Source of the DNA: Escherichia phage RB14
Sequence record: NC_012638.1
Strand: one strand, 5' to 3'
Length of the DNA stretch: 64,000 nucleotides
A program made the position numbers and the translations under genes. The notes below the pieces were generated by a model. The model had not been told where the DNA came from, searched no databases, and worked only from the letters and a program-made list of their open reading frames with translations. How positions within the stretch are numbered: the stretch's first letter is position 1; every line of letters begins with the position of its first letter. Below, piece after piece: positions 54,506 to 64,000 of this stretch.

Positions 54506-56563
54506 CTACATTTTGAACTTTTTAGACATTCCGTTGATGTTAACCAAAGAAGCTAAGATTTGAGAAACTTCGTTTTCCTCTTCTTTTGATTCTTCTACAA
54601 GGAATTGATTAAATCCAGCCATTGGACGAACTTCACCAGTTTCCATTAGATGGTCGCCATCATATACTGATTCTTCTAATTGTTCAGAAGGAGGAACGAT
54701 TGTACCTTCGATTAGATACTTGTTATAAGCAGTTTCTTTCATAAAGTAAGTACTTACTTTATTAATCTTCAGTAAAATTCCACGTGGTAGAATAACTTCA
54801 GCTTCTGATGGAAATCCTGATAAATGACCCGGAACGATAACTTTAACTCGTTCAGCTCCTTTAATTACCATACCCACGCTAGTTTCAGCATCTTCATTAG
54901 CATATGTAGAATGACTACCCATATGCATCAAATCTTCTGCATCAACAGAACCTTCTCCTTCGCCAGAAAATACTGCACCGGAATCATCTAGAGCCATATA
55001 GTTTTTACCATGCTCACCGAAGATATTTGGTTTAAGTGATGTCGATACGAAGTTCTTGAAATAGAACATTTTATTTTCAATGTTATGACGCAAAGTTTTA
55101 AAAGTAACTTCTTGTCCACGGTAAAGTGTAGTTCCTGGAGGAAGAACTGAACCTTTAGCAAACGCAGAATCCATAGTCTCGATGTGCTTAATAGCGCGCT
55201 CCATGTATTCTTCACGTGTAGAATCAGGTTTACCTAAAAGGAATGAGTTCATTTCAACATACGAATCTGCGCAATAATCTTCAATTACATCAGACTCAGC
55301 CTGAGTCAATCCTTTTGGAGTTACTTCAGTGCTTGCATATTCATACGCCTGAGCAGCGGATTCATCAATTAATTTATAAATTCCATTCATTACAAATTGA
55401 ATAATAGCTGTCTTTTCATCTGGTGTAGCTTTAGAACCTTTAACTAAATCATTGATAATTTTCTTAATAACATCAAAACTATTAGAAATATTAATATCAG
55501 CAAGATCGCTTAAAATTTTATCAGTTTTGTAATTAAAGAAGTCTTTATTCTTTAAATATTCCTGGGAACCTTGATATGATGTATCGCTCTGCAACTTGAT
55601 AGATGGATCGCGTAAACGTGCATGGGCTAATGCAATATGATTTCGGAAACTTTCTAGTTCATAATCGTTAGATTTAAAACGAGAAGCACTTCTCATACCG
55701 CCGATAGCTCCTTTGCCGAAGTTTGAACCAATCTGAATAACGCCAGAGTTCATTGGTCCTTCTGCTTTATATACCGGAACTTTAGATTCAAACTCTTGAT
55801 ATTTCTTAGCAGCGAAGCTATCACCCTGAAGTGAAGCATCAACAGTAGAATATTGAGCTTGTGCTGCTAATCGACGACTAATTTTAGTTTTCTGAATAAC
55901 AGCTTGATCCGTACGCTTATCATTTTCTAAAGCAATAGAAGCAGCAACTGCGACAGCTTTAGGAACAGCATTACCTGTTTTAACGTCTACATAAACATCA
56001 CCAACCTTTGATTCAACTTTTGTGAATAACTCAGTTGAAATAGGAGGTACACCTGGAATGTCTTCTAAATTGGCATTTTTACGGTAAACCATAATATATG
56101 CATATTTCTTATCATAGTCCCAGATTTCCTTTAAAAGAACATATCGACCTGCTCCTTTAGTACGTACTAAACGGTCAGCAATAACTTGCATTTGACGAGC
56201 AGCGCCATTTGTTTTACTTTTTAGTACGCGGAATAGGCATGCATCAATTTTATACTGTTTCATTGTTTGAAGAGCAGTATCAAAAACCGCATTAATGACA
56301 CCAATTGGATTTCCACCCAAGTTTTTAAGCTTAACTAACGATAATTTCTCATTAACACCTATCATTACGATATGCATCATTTTGTCGCCTGGCTTAACGT
56401 TTTTATTCGTATCACCGCCAGAGGTGTATGTACAAAATCGAAATCCAGGAAGAACGCTTTCTTCACCGGCTTGAATAGCAAAAATTTGAGGTATTTTATG
56501 CTTAGGATTTAAGTTAACAACCGGCGCCGAAGCGCCGTCAAATAATTCTGTAATAAGTTCCAT
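54506..56563 (-). CDS. alt: Alt-family ADP-ribosyltransferase, paralog A
   Basis: 685 aa; N-terminus MELITELFD...; C-terminal ART triad in order: Arg (TLYRGQ), STS (FVSTSL), E-x-E (SEAEVILPRG). Confidence 0.8.
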   Translation of the reverse strand: MELITELFDGASAPVVNLNPKHKIPQIFAIQAGEESVLPGFRFCTYTSGGDTNKNVKPGDKMMHIVMIGVNEKLSLVKLKNLGGNPIGVINAVFDTALQTMKQYKIDACLFRVLKSKTNGAARQMQVIADRLVRTKGAGRYVLLKEIWDYDKKYAYIMVYRKNANLEDIPGVPPISTELFTKVESKVGDVYVDVKTGNAVPKAVAVAASIALENDKRTDQAVIQKTKISRRLAAQAQYSTVDASLQGDSFAAKKYQEFESKVPVYKAEGPMNSGVIQIGSNFGKGAIGGMRSASRFKSNDYELESFRNHIALAHARLRDPSIKLQSDTSYQGSQEYLKNKDFFNYKTDKILSDLADINISNSFDVIKKIINDLVKGSKATPDEKTAIIQFVMNGIYKLIDESAAQAYEYASTEVTPKGLTQAESDVIEDYCADSYVEMNSFLLGKPDSTREEYMERAIKHIETMDSAFAKGSVLPPGTTLYRGQEVTFKTLRHNIENKMFYFKNFVSTSLKPNIFGEHGKNYMALDDSGAVFSGEGEGSVDAEDLMHMGSHSTYANEDAETSVGMVIKGAERVKVIVPGHLSGFPSEAEVILPRGILLKINKVSTYFMKETAYNKYLIEGTIVPPSEQLEESVYDGDHLMETGEVRPMAGFNQFLVEESKEEENEVSQILASLVNINGMSKKFKM

Positions 56564-56566
56564 GAT

Positions 56567-58663
56567 TTATCCTTGAACGAACTTGTAAGGCATGTTTGTA
56601 ATATCTATGCAAGACGCAATAATTCCAAGAGATGATTCTACTTTCTGTTTAACGTTTGATGAAACAAATGATGCAAAGTCAACTCTGTCTTCTATTTCAG
56701 TATCACCTGTCATTGCAACTACTTCACCGGTTTCCATTAAATGGTCTCCGTCATAGATTACCGATTCGGTGAGCTCTTCCGTGGTCATAACTTCAGCTTG
56801 AATGAGTTTTGTATTATTAGATGTTGTTCCGTCATTATTAGAAGCATCAGTTATTTTATTAACTTTGACCATCAATCCACGCGGTAGAATAACTTCAGCT
56901 TCTGTTGCTATTCCGAGACTTCCTGGATATACAACATTAACTTTATGAGCTCCATCAATTGCCCATCCTATTTGAACTTTAACGTATTCAGGATTTTCTT
57001 TATACGCTCTTATTTCGTTTGGATTAATAGTTATTCCTTCTTCATTTTTATCAACTGTTAATTCATTGCGAGCTTCTGGTTCTAAAAGACCAATACCAGC
57101 ATGTGTGATTCCAAAACGTCCAAAAATGATAGGAGTTAAAGAAGTAGATACAAAATTTCTGAAGTAGAACACTTTATTTTTAACTAACGCTTCATATATA
57201 GGAGCAGTCATACTTTGAGCACGATAAACTGTAATGCCTTCTGGTATACGGTCACCATTTTCAAAAGCTGAATCTAAGTTATTTATAGCAGATTCAATTT
57301 CTTTTTCACTCATTACATCATATCGTTCTGGATTGTAACGACCTAAAAGAAGATTATTGATGTCAGTATATCCTGAACCGCAATATTCTCTAATGCCACG
57401 CTTTTGTGATGGAGTATATTTAGAACCATCGCGGGCAATAGTAATATCAATCATTGGACCAGCACCAATTCCAGAAAAACTGTAAATCATTCGTTTGAGG
57501 AATTTAGTTTTTGCTGCGTTCCAGGAATTTTTAGTTATTTCTTCCCAGACTTCATCTGGTTGTCCTTTACGATTTTTATTATGATTAGCAAGCCATTTAT
57601 CTTTATAATCTTCAAAGAATTGATTTACAGCTGCTGCGTATTTCTCTAAACATTTTATTGAAGTAGTTGGTTCATTTTTAATTGCATTAAAAATTACTTC
57701 TTTAATTTTTTCTGAAACTTCACCGACTTGACTCATTGGAAAGAATTTATAATCATAGTGAAGTTCATCTGCCGTTCCTTCAGCAATAATTTTTGCTGCC
57801 TTTGTTTTAGAAGCTAATGAATTAATTCCAATTTTCATTTCTTCTGCTTCGGGAATTAAAGGTGCAGTAGCTGGTTTATTAAAATTAGCTGCTGTAGATT
57901 CATACTTCTGGAATAATTCACTTTCAAATCTAGAAGATTCCAATGACTGACTTTGTGCAATTGCTCTACGGGAAATTTTAACTTTAACGATTACGGCTTG
58001 GTCAGAACGTTTATCATTTTCTTGTGCAATAGATGCAGCAATTGCCTCATTTTTGGTTACTTGAGCTCCAGTATCTTTATTGATATAAACATCACCGACC
58101 TTCGATTCAACTTTAGTAAAGAGCTCGGTGCTAATTTCTGGAACTCCTGGAATGTCTTCTAGTGATACATTTTTACGATGTATAAGAATATATGCATACT
58201 TTTTATCGTAATCCCAGAGTTCCTTAAGAAGGACGTATCTGCCACCTGAACGACTGCGGATGAGTCTATCAGCAATAAGTTGAATTTGTCGAGCTTGACC
58301 GGCGGTTTTAGACTTAAGAATACGAAGCATGCAGGCATCAATTTTATATTGACGCATTGTTTGCATTGCAACAGTAAAAACTGAATTGATATAATTAATC
58401 GGGCTTGGACCAAGACCTTTTAATTTAGCAATTGAACCTTTAGCAGTTAATGTAAAAGGAACAATATGCATCATTTTATCGCCCATCTTTAAATCACGAT
58501 TAGTATCACCTCCAGATGTATAGGTACATAAACGAAAGCCTGGTTGTTCAATTGCATCATCAACATGAACTGAAAAAATTTGTGGTATTTTCTTCTTTGG
58601 ATTTAAGTTTGTAATCGGAAGAGTAGTATCTTCGTCAAATAATTCTGTAATGAGTTCCATCAT
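56567..58663 (-). CDS. Alt-family ADP-ribosyltransferase, paralog B
   Basis: 698 aa; N-terminal about 190 aa closely similar to paralog A; C-terminal YRAQ / FVSTSL / TEAEVILPRG; central region diverged. Confidence 0.8.
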   Translation of the reverse strand: MMELITELFDEDTTLPITNLNPKKKIPQIFSVHVDDAIEQPGFRLCTYTSGGDTNRDLKMGDKMMHIVPFTLTAKGSIAKLKGLGPSPINYINSVFTVAMQTMRQYKIDACMLRILKSKTAGQARQIQLIADRLIRSRSGGRYVLLKELWDYDKKYAYILIHRKNVSLEDIPGVPEISTELFTKVESKVGDVYINKDTGAQVTKNEAIAASIAQENDKRSDQAVIVKVKISRRAIAQSQSLESSRFESELFQKYESTAANFNKPATAPLIPEAEEMKIGINSLASKTKAAKIIAEGTADELHYDYKFFPMSQVGEVSEKIKEVIFNAIKNEPTTSIKCLEKYAAAVNQFFEDYKDKWLANHNKNRKGQPDEVWEEITKNSWNAAKTKFLKRMIYSFSGIGAGPMIDITIARDGSKYTPSQKRGIREYCGSGYTDINNLLLGRYNPERYDVMSEKEIESAINNLDSAFENGDRIPEGITVYRAQSMTAPIYEALVKNKVFYFRNFVSTSLTPIIFGRFGITHAGIGLLEPEARNELTVDKNEEGITINPNEIRAYKENPEYVKVQIGWAIDGAHKVNVVYPGSLGIATEAEVILPRGLMVKVNKITDASNNDGTTSNNTKLIQAEVMTTEELTESVIYDGDHLMETGEVVAMTGDTEIEDRVDFASFVSSNVKQKVESSLGIIASCIDITNMPYKFVQG

Positions 58664-58901: not shown

Positions 58902-60361
58902 AAACCAGTTACCTCATGAAAATCGCCAAATACATCTTCGAACGTATTAGCTTTAGTTTTATCTTCACGTAAACGAATCGCAATTGGAAGAAATAATTTA
59001 ACGTAATCGGTGCGGCCATCAGATTTTAACCAACCGTTGCATTCGCACTCTAGAATTTTTCCAATATAATAATTTTGGTTTTCCATAATGCGAGTACGGT
59101 CAAGTTCATGCGATTTTATACCAGCTTTATCTTTTAAGCCTGAACCAGCATTTACTTTAATTTTTCCACACTCTGACTCAAGAATAAATCCACCCGCTTT
59201 AGTAGGGTCTTTACGGTGAGGATAAATTCCTACAATTTTTAAATCAACATCAATTACTTCTTTAAATTTATAAAGATTTTTTGAACGAGCATTTTCCCAT
59301 AATCCATCGATATTTTTGAGAATAATACCTTCAAGACCTTGGTCAATATACTTTTTGTAAATTACCTTAGCTTCATCTAGGTTATTTACTACTTGGTTTT
59401 CAATTAAAATTACTTTATCATAGCCTGATGTCATTTGTTCTAGTTTAGAAAAACGTACATCATATTTTAAACGAAACGCTGGAAGACCATATATTTCTAC
59501 TAATGGAACATAGTCCCAGACCTGAAACTTCATGCATTGTGCTTCTTTTTCAGAAATGGTTCCCTTTAAAGATTTATTAGCGATTCCATTAGAAGTAGTA
59601 CGTGATTCAGCTACTTCGGCGAATTCTTTAGCTTTACTAATTTCAGGATAAGCATCAAAAAGAAAATCTAGGCCTTCTGGTTCCTTTTCAACTTGCTCAT
59701 GGTATACCAATTCGCCATCAATTAACACACCTTCTGGATGAATCTGGCGAGCTTCTGCAGTCATTTTGATTAACTCTTCCTTGAGAAGATCTAATCCTAG
59801 ATATTCATTACCAGCTCGTGATAAAAGACGAACATCATCTAATTCATCACCTCTGACTTCAGCAAAGCACCGAGCTCCATCAGCTTTTAACTGCGCAAAA
59901 GCTGGAAACTTAATATTCTTACTAATGCCTTTTTCATCATAAGAACTTGCCAGCATTTGAGGTTGTTCAGGAATTAAACCTGGCCAAACTTTATTTGCAA
60001 TAGATACTGAAGCACCGCATTCAAGGTCTCGCATCATCACCCGACGCAAAACTTCAACATCATCTTTTTTACCGTCAGCAATATATCCAGTTAATTCCTC
60101 AATTGCCGCATTTCCGGTCAATTTCCGAGTAGCTAACGTGAATTCAATGAAGTCAAGCATATCGGTAAGAGTCAACATTCCAAAACTCTGGGTAGCAATA
60201 CCAGGTTTAGGCCATTTCTTGATATAATACTGTAACCCACGAGAATAAGTCAGACGATATACTCGTTTAAGCAATTCATTATCTTTATTCTTTTCAAGAA
60301 TTGCTTGCTTCTGCTTAGTTGAACCAATAGATGCTATTTCGTTCAGAATTTTAAGAATCAT
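58898..60361 (-). CDS. 30: ATP-dependent DNA ligase (gene 30)
   Basis: 487 aa; adenylation motif KADGAR; sequence recognisable as T4 DNA ligase. Confidence 0.93.
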   Translation of the reverse strand: MILKILNEIASIGSTKQKQAILEKNKDNELLKRVYRLTYSRGLQYYIKKWPKPGIATQSFGMLTLTDMLDFIEFTLATRKLTGNAAIEELTGYIADGKKDDVEVLRRVMMRDLECGASVSIANKVWPGLIPEQPQMLASSYDEKGISKNIKFPAFAQLKADGARCFAEVRGDELDDVRLLSRAGNEYLGLDLLKEELIKMTAEARQIHPEGVLIDGELVYHEQVEKEPEGLDFLFDAYPEISKAKEFAEVAESRTTSNGIANKSLKGTISEKEAQCMKFQVWDYVPLVEIYGLPAFRLKYDVRFSKLEQMTSGYDKVILIENQVVNNLDEAKVIYKKYIDQGLEGIILKNIDGLWENARSKNLYKFKEVIDVDLKIVGIYPHRKDPTKAGGFILESECGKIKVNAGSGLKDKAGIKSHELDRTRIMENQNYYIGKILECECNGWLKSDGRTDYVKLFLPIAIRLREDKTKANTFEDVFGDFHEVTGL

Positions 60362-60627
60362 TGTTCATCCTTTAGAGTTTGGTTTACAGCTCTATTATAA
60401 ATCAATTCATCATTAAGCTCAGTCAAAGACCTGTGGTACGTGGTTCTAACTTTATTTCCTTGCATCCAGTGCTTGACGTAAATGAAACCTTGCTCTACGC
60501 ATTTTTTAAAAATTCGTTCGTCTTTTTGAGCTCGGAACTCTGGATTGCATCTAAAAAATTGATTTACGTGACCGTAATCACGTGTAGTATTACCTTCATT
60601 TTCATAAATAGTGTGAACGACAAACAT
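60358..60627 (-). CDS. hypothetical protein
   Basis: 89 aa ORF; ATGA overlap with ligase start. Confidence 0.6.
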   Translation of the reverse strand: MFVVHTIYENEGNTTRDYGHVNQFFRCNPEFRAQKDERIFKKCVEQGFIYVKHWMQGNKVRTTYHRSLTELNDELIYNRAVNQTLKDEQ

Positions 60628-61463
60628 TAGAATGCTCCTTGGAAAATATTATCACCACCAGTAGGTCTATTATACAAATACTCTATGCCACCAGGTTTAA
60701 TATAGTTCCATGTCTGAAACGGATGTGTCTGATATGGATGATATAGATTATAAGGATTAAATCCAGGAGTTCTCCAGGTAGTGTTCCAAGGAAAAGAATC
60801 ATTTTTAATCATCTTTTCAATTACATCTTTTATAGCTTTTTCACTATCAAAACTTTCTTTATTTTCCTTCGATGGAAAAAGCTTATTCTCTACATCATTC
60901 CATGTATAAACTCGCTGCGCAGTTTTTGGAATACTGTCACGCTCCCCTCGAGCCATCCAATAAACAGGAACATTTAATATTTCACTCGCGTGATCGCAGT
61001 GGTGAGCGAGATCGTCAATATAACAAATTACGTTATATTTCTCTTTTGCCTTTTTGAACAACTCTTCTTTTGAAGAATCATGACCACACATCAATACTTC
61101 TGAGAAGGCACCAGGAAAAAGAGCATTCAAATTAAATTGACGATTTAGCAGAGCGTCAATAGAATCACCCAATGCTGTAACAGCTACAAAATTATAATCT
61201 TCTTTTAATTTGTTAATTACACACAGGGCATCTTTATACGGAGACAAGTAACGAATAAAATCTGAACGATTGTATTTTTCAATTAACTTGACACCAAGTT
61301 CTTCATCGCAATTAAAGAGCTTACCAGGAGAAATAAATTTTTCGTCCTGAATCATTTTTAAAATATGTTCCAACGGAAGATTATATTTTTGGGCAAAATA
61401 AGGAAGACCTGATTGCCAGCTTAAACATACACCATCAATATCAGTCAAAATAGTAGGCTTCAT
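60627..61463 (-). CDS. HAD-superfamily-like hydrolase (putative)
   Basis: 278 aa; N-terminal LTDIDGV resembles HAD motif I (DxDG[TV]). Confidence 0.55.
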   Translation of the reverse strand: MKPTILTDIDGVCLSWQSGLPYFAQKYNLPLEHILKMIQDEKFISPGKLFNCDEELGVKLIEKYNRSDFIRYLSPYKDALCVINKLKEDYNFVAVTALGDSIDALLNRQFNLNALFPGAFSEVLMCGHDSSKEELFKKAKEKYNVICYIDDLAHHCDHASEILNVPVYWMARGERDSIPKTAQRVYTWNDVENKLFPSKENKESFDSEKAIKDVIEKMIKNDSFPWNTTWRTPGFNPYNLYHPYQTHPFQTWNYIKPGGIEYLYNRPTGGDNIFQGAF

Positions 61464-61918
61464 AGAGAGTCTCTTAATAGGTTTAACACATCAATAAATT
61501 CAGCTTCGGTTAATATTGTATCATCTTTTGTTAGACTACTAGCCATGCTGTGCTTCAAAACTTTTCCTTTCGAGGCTTGTAATGCATCACGAAAGCCCTT
61601 GTTTTGAATCGCTGCCTCAAAATACGCATTTGTGTATAATTCTTTCCACGCTGGAGAGTATCTTGAAAACGGAACTCCGAGCCAGAAGAGGGTCCCACGG
61701 TCCTGAGCTCTAGCATAAGACCTTCCAGCTTGTTGGGCGGCAAGCCCGGATAACCCAAATACACGACGTTGCTGTTCAACATTTTTCACCTTACATCCTT
61801 GGAGAAATCCTTCAAGACCTCCAAATTGGATACCATCCATAACAAAAGGCCATTGGGCGAAATTACTTAATGCACACGATGGCCATCTAAAATTGCTTCT
61901 AATCTCTAACTCAGACAT
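61460..61918 (-). CDS. YbiA/NADAR (DUF1768)-like protein, putative ADP-ribose-related N-glycosidase
   Basis: 152 aa from ATG 61918 (ORF-track frame starts 2 codons earlier on TTG); LSNFAQWPFVMDG...LEGFLQGCK closely parallels E. coli YbiA FSNFAAWPIKVDG...SEHYFQAQK. Confidence 0.6.
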   Translation of the reverse strand: MSELEIRSNFRWPSCALSNFAQWPFVMDGIQFGGLEGFLQGCKVKNVEQQRRVFGLSGLAAQQAGRSYARAQDRGTLFWLGVPFSRYSPAWKELYTNAYFEAAIQNKGFRDALQASKGKVLKHSMASSLTKDDTILTEAEFIDVLNLLRDSL

Positions 61919-62117
61919 TTTCAATACTTATAATTTCAACATCAGCCCAATGACCATAGCAAGGAAGACGAAATTCAACTGGCCAGTTAGGGTCCTTTTC
62001 TAATATAATAGACTTAACTTGTGGTTCTTCATGTTCATCAGTATATGGATTTTTATCTGTTACTTTATATGTGACCTTAATGTACTGAATTCCAAAAATC
62101 TTATAAATTATATTCAT
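61911..62117 (-). CDS. hypothetical protein
   Basis: 68 aa ORF with ATG. Confidence 0.55.
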   Translation of the reverse strand: MNIIYKIFGIQYIKVTYKVTDKNPYTDEHEEPQVKSIILEKDPNWPVEFRLPCYGHWADVEIISIENV

Positions 62118-62311
62118 ACTAATTCCTTTAATCCGTAAATAGGAGATAATTCATCACCCATACGAAGGTCTTCATTTCCATCTACCCAGGAAACAATATA
62201 AGCCTCTTTTATTTGAACACCACTCCATTTAAATGGAGGTAGAACCTTAGAAATTAATCCAGGTATACCAACTCCCTTTAATTCAACAGTTTGACCTAAA
62301 AAGAATTTCAT
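62114..62311 (-). CDS. hypothetical protein
   Basis: 65 aa ORF with ATG; 4-nt overlaps with both neighbours. Confidence 0.55.
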   Translation of the reverse strand: MKFFLGQTVELKGVGIPGLISKVLPPFKWSGVQIKEAYIVSWVDGNEDLRMGDELSPIYGLKELV

Positions 62312-62598
62312 CAGAACCTCATCTGAAAGCCGTGTGATTTAACATTACCGCCGCCAATATCAGAAATATTAATTTCACGCGCAATTGAAGGGTCAATGTC
62401 AATTTCACGATTAAGTTTAGCGATAGCTAAAGTATCACGCCCATTTACTGTACGGAATTCTAAAGGACAAACCACATCAACATAATTTTTAATCGATTCA
62501 CTGGTAGGTTGCAAATGAGCAGGAAGGTCTTTAGGCGCCTTAGAGAAAACAACTTCACAGAAATTTTTGCGGGTATCAAAATAAGTAGTCATAAACAT
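62311..62598 (-). CDS. hypothetical protein
   Basis: 95 aa from ATG 62598 with GAGGAAAATACT leader; ORF-track frame extends to TTG at 62649 across a hairpin. Confidence 0.6.
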   Translation of the reverse strand: MFMTTYFDTRKNFCEVVFSKAPKDLPAHLQPTSESIKNYVDVVCPLEFRTVNGRDTLAIAKLNREIDIDPSIAREINISDIGGGNVKSHGFQMRF

Positions 62599-62615
62599 AG
62601 TATTTTCCTCAGTAA

Positions 62616-62629
62616 GGGGCCGAAGCCCC
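62616..62629. other. stem-loop GGGGCCGAAGCCCC (U-tract on plus strand side)
   Basis: Third identical copy of this 14-mer; followed on plus strand by TTTTTTATTTT, so could terminate antisense transcription. Confidence 0.45.
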
Positions 62630-62638
62630 TTTTTTATT

Positions 62639-63004
62639 TTAAATATCAAATTCGTTAAGAACTACATCAAAGATTGCTTCAAGATGCTCAGGTTTAGCTC
62701 TATTACTCAGAATATGACGAATCCAAGTTTTAACCAGAAGCTTACGATTAACGCCATTCCAGCAAGGATGAGTCCCTAAATCACGTTGACGAAAATCATC
62801 ATCTAATGCGATTTTAAAAGAAGAACCTTCTTTCGTGATTGAAACTGTAATACCGTTTTCAAATCGCATATAAACATAGTTAGGAGTCATATACTGTTCA
62901 ATTTCGCATACTGAACCATTTTGATGTTTCCAAAGGCAGATAGTATCAATAGAACCTGCAATACCGTTAGAAACATATTTACGTTCAAAGTTGATGTAGT
63001 TCAT
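62639..63004 (-). CDS. hypothetical protein
   Basis: 121 aa from ATG 63004 in conserved TTGGAGAATAAA-ATG leader; ORF-track frame starts on TTG 63016. Confidence 0.6.
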   Translation of the reverse strand: MNYINFERKYVSNGIAGSIDTICLWKHQNGSVCEIEQYMTPNYVYMRFENGITVSITKEGSSFKIALDDDFRQRDLGTHPCWNGVNRKLLVKTWIRHILSNRAKPEHLEAIFDVVLNEFDI

Positions 63005-63029
63005 TTTATTCTCCAAGATGTTTAATTGC

Positions 63030-63069
63030 GGTACAGGTATATAATATCATATCCTGTACCAAAGTAAAC
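63030..63069 (-). promoter_or_regulatory. T-even early-type promoter with embedded 8-bp inverted repeat
   Basis: Minus GTTTAC (63064..63069), 17-nt spacer, TATTAT (63041..63046); inverted repeat GGTACAGG/CCTGTACC (63030..63060) spans -10 and spacer. Confidence 0.5.
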
Positions 63070-63071
63070 AA

Positions 63072-63404
63072 TTATTTTACTACTTTCCAATGCTTCATAT
63101 CAAGTTTACCAACTTTTTTCATCTTCTCAATTAAGCGTTCGGCACGTTGGCGAGCTGTAACATAATACCATTCACCTAATTCATTTTGTTCAATTTTTCC
63201 AACGATTACTGTATTCAATTCATAAATCCAACCAGTAAAGAAATTATGAACTTGAATTGTAAAGGTGAAATCTGTTCCCATACCTTCTGTTGTTTCTACT
63301 TCAATAATATCACCTTCAACTGCCATTAAGAACCACATAGTTTCATCATATTTACCATTGAAGCATTTAGTTTTAACTGCAGCGTTCAGATTAATCGTTT
63401 TCAT
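63072..63404 (-). CDS. hypothetical protein
   Basis: 110 aa ORF, ATG with AAGGAGAATAAA leader. Confidence 0.6.
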   Translation of the reverse strand: MKTINLNAAVKTKCFNGKYDETMWFLMAVEGDIIEVETTEGMGTDFTFTIQVHNFFTGWIYELNTVIVGKIEQNELGEWYYVTARQRAERLIEKMKKVGKLDMKHWKVVK

Positions 63405-63419
63405 TTTATTCTCCTTTGT

Positions 63420-63452
63420 TTGTGTAAGATAATACTATCACAAAGGAACCAT
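63420..63452 (-). promoter_or_regulatory. T-even early-type promoter
   Basis: Minus CAAAGTTGTTTACAG (GTTTAC at plus 63446..63451), 18-nt spacer, TAGTAT; same extended motif as ip-gene promoters. Confidence 0.5.
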
Positions 63453-63491
63453 ACTGTAAACAACTTTGTGCAATCTTTGGAAAATAAAAAA

Positions 63492-63512
63492 GGACTCCCG
63501 AAGGAGTCCTCA
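63492..63512 (-). terminator. rho-independent terminator
   Basis: Minus-strand hairpin GGACTCC-TTCG-GGAGTCC followed by TTTTTTATTTT, just downstream of 63515..63691. Confidence 0.7.
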
Positions 63513-63514
63513 AC

Positions 63515-63691
63515 TTATGCTTTCTGCTTACCAAAACGAGAAGCATCATCTCGAAGAACCGCACGTGCTCGGCGCATGATCTTCTCAACAGTTTGATTGA
63601 TACGAGAGTTCGACCCACGCTTGTAACCAGCGCGTTTAGAATCACCAACTTTCTTTTCAACTGCTTTCTTTGCTTTAGCTTGTTTTGCCAT
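63515..63691 (-). CDS. hypothetical small basic protein (58 aa)
   Basis: ATG at 63691 (MAKQAKAKKAVEKK...); ORF-track frame extends further upstream; weak RBS. Confidence 0.45.
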   Translation of the reverse strand: MAKQAKAKKAVEKKVGDSKRAGYKRGSNSRINQTVEKIMRRARAVLRDDASRFGKQKA

Positions 63692-64000
63692 TATAAATTC
63701 TCTTTTAAATGAAAATGCAGGACTTATTGGCATTGCCTGCGCAAGCCCTCAAGGGGAACATAGGTTTTGAATATTTACCGACAGGATAACCATAAACCCG
63801 TCATCATTCACATTCAAGAGGTACACCATAAAACTGCCGGGGTCTTAAAACTATAATGATTCGCAAATCATTAATCAGACAGTTCGATGGCTCCTCGATT
63901 TTAGCTCACACTAAGGCAGTGAATCTCCAATAAATTACTTCAATGTTACCACAAAGTGACGAACTGCTTTTCGTGCAGCAGAAGCCAGAGGCTTGGCATA

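Follow-up and report, generated by a model that had tools for sequence, protein, structure and literature searches.

Escherichia phage RB14 encodes an intact AdfN, a phage-clade member of the NADAR superfamily

Escherichia phage RB14 carries an intact copy of adfN, the gene that in phage T4 bears the number 30.3, on the minus strand of the 64,000-nt stretch of record NC_012638.1 analysed herein (hereafter, "the window"). For the RB14 copy, we establish the gene identity, the predicted fold, the conservation of the catalytic residues and the intactness of the C-terminus. With a probability that we put at roughly 93%, the 30.3 product is AdfN, a NADAR hydrolase that would remove the guanine-linked ADP-ribose made by the toxin DarT1, with the phage thereby escaping the DarTG1 system.

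Gene 30.3 and its setting

A preliminary interpretation made from the letters of the sequence, i.e., the sequence-only reading, had drawn attention to a 152-aa reading frame at positions 61460–61918. This ORF is real, and its strand, which had been left unstated, can now be added: it runs on the minus strand from an ATG at 61918 to a stop codon that ends at 61460, with an alternative TTG start two codons upstream (at 61924) from which a 154-aa product would result. The features of the locus are as follows.

60627..61463, minus strand: gene 30.2, encoding 278 aa (phrog_420); its start overlaps the adfN stop (ATGA)
61460..61918, minus strand: adfN (gene 30.3) coding sequence, 152 aa plus stop; predicted phage-clade NADAR DNA ADP-ribosylglycohydrolase
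61460..61463, minus strand: 4-nt ATGA overlap between the 30.3 stop and the gene 30.2 start, from ORF coordinates and sequence
61911..61918, minus strand: 8-nt overlap between the 30.3 start codon and the 3' end of gene 30.4, ATGTCTGA, from sequence and ORF coordinates

Over the 2.4 kb around the gene, identity to phages RB51, RB68, and Ac3 (Tequatrovirus, Straboviridae) reaches 98.9%, and the annotated gene order in RB51/T4 (54, alt.-3, alt, (alt), alt.1, 30 [DNA ligase], 30.1, 30.2, 30.3, 30.4 ... 30.9, rIII, 31) identifies the ORF as gene 30.3. The segment 61460–61918 is thus the adfN gene of a Tequatrovirus with RB51 and RB68 as near relatives. The encoded protein does not differ from gp30.3 of RB51, RB68, and Ac3 (100% identity), and matches T4 gp30.3 at 149 of 152 residues (98%) without gaps over the full length, the three differences (V53I, M125I, and S128G) all being conservative. 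RB14 and T4 also have in common the map position (30.2/30.3/30.4), the protein length, the residues E36, K43, and H123, and the C-terminal helix; they differ in that RB14 is RB51/RB68-like with two full alt genes, whereas T4 has one alt plus remnants.

Overlaps at both ends show that adfN belongs to a run of closely spaced small genes whose translation is probably coupled, with coupling to 30.4 likely to arise through the 8-nt overlap. Both immediate neighbours, 30.2 and 30.4, belong to PHROG families of unknown function. A 75-aa ORF in another frame lies wholly inside adfN (61555..61782, minus strand) and corresponds to T4 30.3', whose annotation reads [quoted passage not shown]; it is not listed in the RB51 annotation.

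Assignment of the locus to an early region, as first proposed, agrees with T4 gene order but gained nothing from a promoter and terminator scan of 60300..64000, in which 13 promoter-like sites were found against 13.4 expected in shuffled sequence. Two strong terminator-like hairpins were seen in the same scan, namely (i) AAGGGGCCGAAGCCCCTT at 62614..62632, plus strand, antisense to the 30.6/30.7 junction, and (ii) GAGGACTCCTTCGGGAGTCCTT at 63490..63511, minus strand, just downstream of 30.9. A T-run follows each hairpin, and the tetraloops are GNRA-like or UUCG-like.

Family, fold, and active site

The family assignment had originally been made from two motif blocks shared with E. coli YbiA. 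Both are present in the RB14 protein (LSNFAQWPFVMDG at residues 17–29 and EGFLQGCK at residues 36–43), and the quoted YbiA counterparts are correct as well (FSNFAAWPIKVDG at residues 29–41 and EHYFQAQK at residues 48–55). When the Pfam search that had been suggested as a check was carried out, its outcome was divided: the protein matched PF08010 (Phage_30_3) over profile positions 1–138 of 138 (E=4e-70; 234.5 bits, cutoff 36), with no direct match to the NADAR profile PF08719 at E≤1. No NCBIfam model matched the protein, its PHROGs match was to phrog_652 (function unknown), and a single-sequence phmmer search of PDB chains returned no NADAR, yielding a chance match to an ATP pyrophosphatase (E=0.5).

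The link to NADAR proteins emerges from the homologues. A database search with the 30.3 product recovered 104 of these, several bearing the JGI name "YbiA (DUF1768 family)", with one homologue cluster (P0083) carrying both the PF08010 and PF08719 labels. Within an alignment of 84 full-length homologues, 12 members matched PF08719 independently (best E=1.5e-7). Searched against PDB sequences, the profile built from this alignment had a single chain below E=0.01, that of E. coli YbiA (2B3W; E=0.0067), with the motif block as the aligned stretch; profile–profile comparison of the alignment with YbiA by hhalign gave a probability of 94.4% (E=9e-8, residues 15–122), and pairwise BLASTP between the 30.3 product and YbiA gave E=7e-6 over exactly the motif block. 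By these comparisons, the similarity to YbiA goes beyond chance.

Structure prediction points the same way. AlphaFold2 supplied with the 84-sequence alignment returned a confident model (pLDDT 93.4, pTM 0.89); this depth of alignment was needed, as prediction from the single sequence was unusable (pLDDT 37.6). In a Foldseek search of the PDB, the model ranked 2B3W (YbiA) first, followed by 8BAU (a Phytophthora NADAR with ADP-ribose) and 8BAT (a Geobacter lovleyi DarG1-type NADAR). The predicted NADAR α+β fold of the 30.3 product is thus well supported. Since profile, profile–profile, and fold evidence agree in tying PF08010 to NADAR, the former is the phage branch of the NADAR superfamily and not an unrelated family, and we rejected the missing PF08719 match as a refutation of NADAR membership.

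Many of the database clusters of close relatives are short, at 83–126 aa, or bear an additional Pfam label (PF11097, PF06919, PF06019, or PF26911), the clusters concerned being P0004–P0007, P0013–P0018, P0047, and P0094. This suggests truncated or frameshifted alleles like that of phage RB69 (see below), or gene-calling fusions with neighbours.

The active-site and C-terminal features of the RB14 gene are the following.

61811..61813, minus strand: GAA codon for catalytic Glu36, read from the sequence; aligns with YbiA E48
61790..61792, minus strand: AAG codon for catalytic Lys43, read from the sequence; aligns with YbiA K55
61550..61552, minus strand: CAC codon for His123, the phage-NADAR marker after the last β-strand, from conservation, model, and alignment
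61466..61507, minus strand: C-terminal α-helix, residues 138–151, from the high-confidence model and the gap-free T4 alignment

The comparison of structure and active site that had been proposed bore out membership in the NADAR superfamily. Neither E36 nor H123 varies across the 84 homologues, K43 is conserved in at least 90%, and E36 and K43 are situated in the NADAR helix motif E-x-[FY]-x-Q-x-x-K. In T4 AdfN, the substitutions E36A and K43A each abolish function (PMC11257639). Residue H123 directly follows strand 120–122 in the predicted structure, and can be set opposite YbiA E125 because the hhalign alignment stops at K122/YbiA V124. This third catalytic position is reported to be Glu in YbiA-type, Asp in DarG1-type, and His in phage NADARs (PMC11125620, PMC11543638). 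With His at the position where Glu defines YbiA, the 30.3 product is not a member of that subfamily; the "YbiA/NADAR-like" label first given to it thus holds for the NADAR superfamily but not for the YbiA subfamily proper, and its sequence places the protein in the phage clade.

The C-terminal helix of the RB14 protein is intact at 152 aa, with no frameshift of the type found in phage RB69, in which a T insertion at nt 411 removes the last 15 residues, a C-terminal helix (PMC11257639). The natural sensitivity of RB69 to DarTG1 is explained by this truncation of the AdfN C-terminus.

Activity and substrate of AdfN

Resistance of T2 and T4 to DarTG1 was mapped to gene 30.3 by phage crosses, and the gene was renamed adfN, by Johannesman et al. 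(bioRxiv 2024, PMC11257639; then Nat Commun 2025;16:1598, PMC11825919). Both necessary and sufficient for this resistance, AdfN (anti-DarT factor NADAR) is a DNA guanine ADP-ribosylglycohydrolase (PMC11825919). Deletion of adfN renders T2 and T4 approximately 10^4-fold more sensitive to DarTG1, and the purified protein strips ADP-ribose from DarT1-modified DNA; AdfN shows no binding to DarT1 (PMC11257639, PMC11825919). Ectopic AdfN rescues RB69, an effect lost with E36A or K43A (PMC11257639). In vitro, the T4 protein removes ADP-ribose from guanosine but not from thymidine (PMC11125620), nor from cytidine (PMC12945103). The methods of one of these studies (Toxins 2024, PMC11125620) give the T4 gp30.3 construct as "residues 1-208", against 152 aa in NC_000866; the larger count may include a tag or be a typographical error.

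At 98% identity to the T4 protein, the RB14 protein would be expected to share both the removal of guanine-ADP-ribose from DNA and the resistance to DarTG1. The reversal of DarT-type guanine ADP-ribosylation by a NADAR enzyme, and its use against a DarTG-like defence, were also anticipated in the sequence-only reading, and they coincide with the function published for T4 gp30.3/AdfN (PMC11825919, PMC11257639). In the mechanism that we propose for RB14, host DarT1 would ADP-ribosylate guanine (at N2) in replicating phage DNA. As a minimal stand-alone NADAR-fold hydrolase, AdfN would then cut the N-glycosidic bond between ADP-ribose and guanine by means of E36, K43, and the phage-specific H123. 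The template would thus be restored, permitting phage replication in cells that carry DarTG1. AdfN would accordingly act as an orphan homologue of type IV antitoxins, i.e., one that has modified DNA as its target and that does not bind the toxin.

Iyer et al. (2022) had suggested that phage NADARs as a group act on soluble signals derived from ADP-ribose. On that view, the main substrates of the RB14 30.3 product would not be DNA adducts but soluble compounds derived from ADP-ribose, for instance immune signals or by-products of RNA repair. Gene neighbourhoods in distant phages lend this some colour, as RNA ligase 2 is encoded beside one distant homologue (locus L009), while in another (L005) PseT and an ADP-ribose pyrophosphatase are encoded upstream of the gp30.3 gene, at a distance of approximately 3 kb. 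Against it stand the removal of ADP-ribose from DNA guanine by the T4 protein in vitro and the 4-log, DarTG1-specific plaquing defect of the T4 deletion, which depends on the catalytic residues. We consider it very unlikely that soluble molecules are the main substrate; as an additional activity of AdfN, such a role is possible.

Removal of guanine-ADP-ribose from phage DNA, the preferred reading, needs one qualification. T4 AdfN fails to rescue uninfected E. coli cells exposed to DarT1 and helps non-T-even phages only weakly, for which reason a T-even factor was proposed by the authors of that work as an extra requirement (PMC11257639, PMC11825919). A simple "antitoxin" picture of AdfN is thus incomplete, and a T-even co-factor or a substrate preference appears to be involved in the action of T4-type AdfN.

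The same behaviour separates T4-type AdfN from its nearest functional counterparts. The 30.3 product is not a DarG1 antitoxin (the BC4488 family, and the G. lovleyi NADAR of 8BAT), because it has neither an adjacent DarT nor the N-terminal extension of DarG1: it is an orphan, with no DarT named across the surrounding 16 kb in the RB51 annotation, and it consists of the core domain only (PMC12945103), at 152 aa versus 219 aa for 8BAT. Moreover, DarG1 has Asp at the third catalytic position where RB14 AdfN has His, and T4 AdfN, unlike DarG1, cannot neutralise DarT1 in uninfected cells. Phage NADARs of the Bas32 and Bas60 types resemble AdfN in being phage-encoded, guanine-specific, and directed against DarTG1 (PMC11257639); however, they belong to other NADAR clades and were independently acquired, and, unlike the T4-type protein, they function in uninfected cells and for unrelated phages.

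Neighbouring genes and distribution

Proximity to two alt genes had also been noted at the outset, with a distance of about 3 kb; this is correct, the nearer alt gene ending 2.8 kb away.

54506..56563, minus strand: alt paralogue of 685 aa (downstream copy), full-length ORF
56567..58663, minus strand: alt paralogue of 698 aa, full-length ORF, 2.8 kb from adfN

These tandem alt (ADP-ribosyltransferase) paralogues are approximately 41% identical to each other. The first ~116 residues of the copy at 54506..56563 show 95–98% identity to the short T4 ORFs alt.-1 and alt.-2, from which it follows that the latter two are the decayed remnant of a second alt that is intact in RB14 and RB51.

Synteny was checked by tblastn in seven distant phages that carry 30.3 homologues. 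In four of the seven (L004, L005, L006, and L010; distant Straboviridae), the DNA ligase gene (30) lies at most ~1.5 kb downstream of the 30.3 homologue on the same strand. Gene 30.2 adjoins 30.3 in three (Serratia phage 92A1, Acinetobacter phage Stupor, and Klebsiella phage Roth90) and is absent beside it in the other four, including Krischvirus MIZ4, in which 30.3 directly abuts the ligase gene; alt is nearby in only two of the seven. The conserved neighbourhood is thus 30.3-(30.2)-ligase. In Aeromonas phage B614 (L007), the 30.3 homologue is found inside a tRNA gene cluster.

With synteny following the ligase gene and not alt, the closeness of alt looks like map-position inheritance within T4-like phages as opposed to a functional module. 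We therefore rejected a functional tie between adfN and alt as unsupported, and the suggestion that the enzyme might edit ADP-ribosyl marks in connection with alt found no supporting evidence. In its full form, this suggestion has the 30.3 product editing or reversing the marks left by the phage's own Alt paralogues, ModA, and ModB. It could draw on the 2.8-kb distance in RB14, on the presence of alt near the ligase/30.3 block also in Serratia phage 92A1 and Acinetobacter phage Stupor, and on the early expression of T4-like NADARs along with ADP-ribosyltransferases (Iyer et al. 2022). However, (i) alt is absent within 4 kb in Klebsiella phage Roth90 and Escherichia phage MIZ4, both of which keep the ligase, (ii) it is likewise absent within 4 kb of the homologue in Aeromonas, Nitratidesulfovibrio, and Brevundimonas phages, and (iii) the substrate that has been demonstrated is guanine-ADP-ribose within nucleic acid, while Alt acts on proteins, the RNA polymerase α subunit being its known target. 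We found no report in the literature of T4 AdfN being assayed on protein ADP-ribosylation as made by Alt, and such a role strikes us as highly improbable.

A YbiA-type housekeeping N-glycosidase acting on riboflavin-pathway intermediates is the reading to which we give least credence, being barely conceivable to us: although YbiA (RefSeq name "N-glycosidase YbiA") is the PDB protein that both the family-profile and Foldseek searches favour, the Glu that defines its subfamily (E125) is replaced by an invariant His (PMC11125620), the published phylogeny sets the T4-type cluster nearest to DarG1 NADARs and not to YbiA (PMC11257639, PMC11825919), the T4/T2 deletion phenotype is DarTG1-specific, and YbiA itself differs from RB14 AdfN in being only ~17–20% identical overall, in its chromosomal location between rhlE and dinG, in an operon described as LexA-controlled (PMC11125620), and in its housekeeping, riboflavin-related role (PMC11825919).

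Returning to AdfN as a DNA-directed hydrolase, the translationally coupled neighbour gene 30.2 is one place to look for its proposed T-even co-factor. The N-terminus of the 30.2 protein (MKPTILTDIDGV) contains a DxDGV motif as in HAD phosphatases, and one GenBank record under the 30.2 match is labelled [quoted passage not shown]; this motif and this single annotator's label suggest a HAD-like protein, with no significant Pfam match and nothing in a PDB sequence search. The N-terminal ~190 residues of 30.2 are conserved beside the 30.3 homologues in the Serratia, Acinetobacter, and Klebsiella phages. Nonetheless, the absence of 30.2 beside 30.3 in four of the seven distant phages makes the linkage between the two genes a loose one, and we regard the 30.2 product as an improbable candidate for the co-factor.

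Homologues of 30.3 were detected by tblastn in 1,509 of 50,697 phage records. Most belong to Straboviridae from Escherichia, Klebsiella, Shigella, Aeromonas, Acinetobacter, and Vibrio; a Nitratidesulfovibrio phage and a Brevundimonas jumbo phage are among the outliers. Among these 1,509 matches, the 60 listed either read "hypothetical protein" or have no more than a bare gp30.3 or "Phage protein" name. Annotation of these matches is thus well behind the literature: publications from between 2023 and 2026 already cover the family and structure class of the adfN product, its catalytic residues, its activity in vitro, and its role against DarTG1.

Ultimately, the inference originally drawn from motifs was sound. 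RB14 carries an intact and presumably functional adfN allele, on account of which this phage, unlike RB69, should form plaques on DarTG1-bearing hosts.
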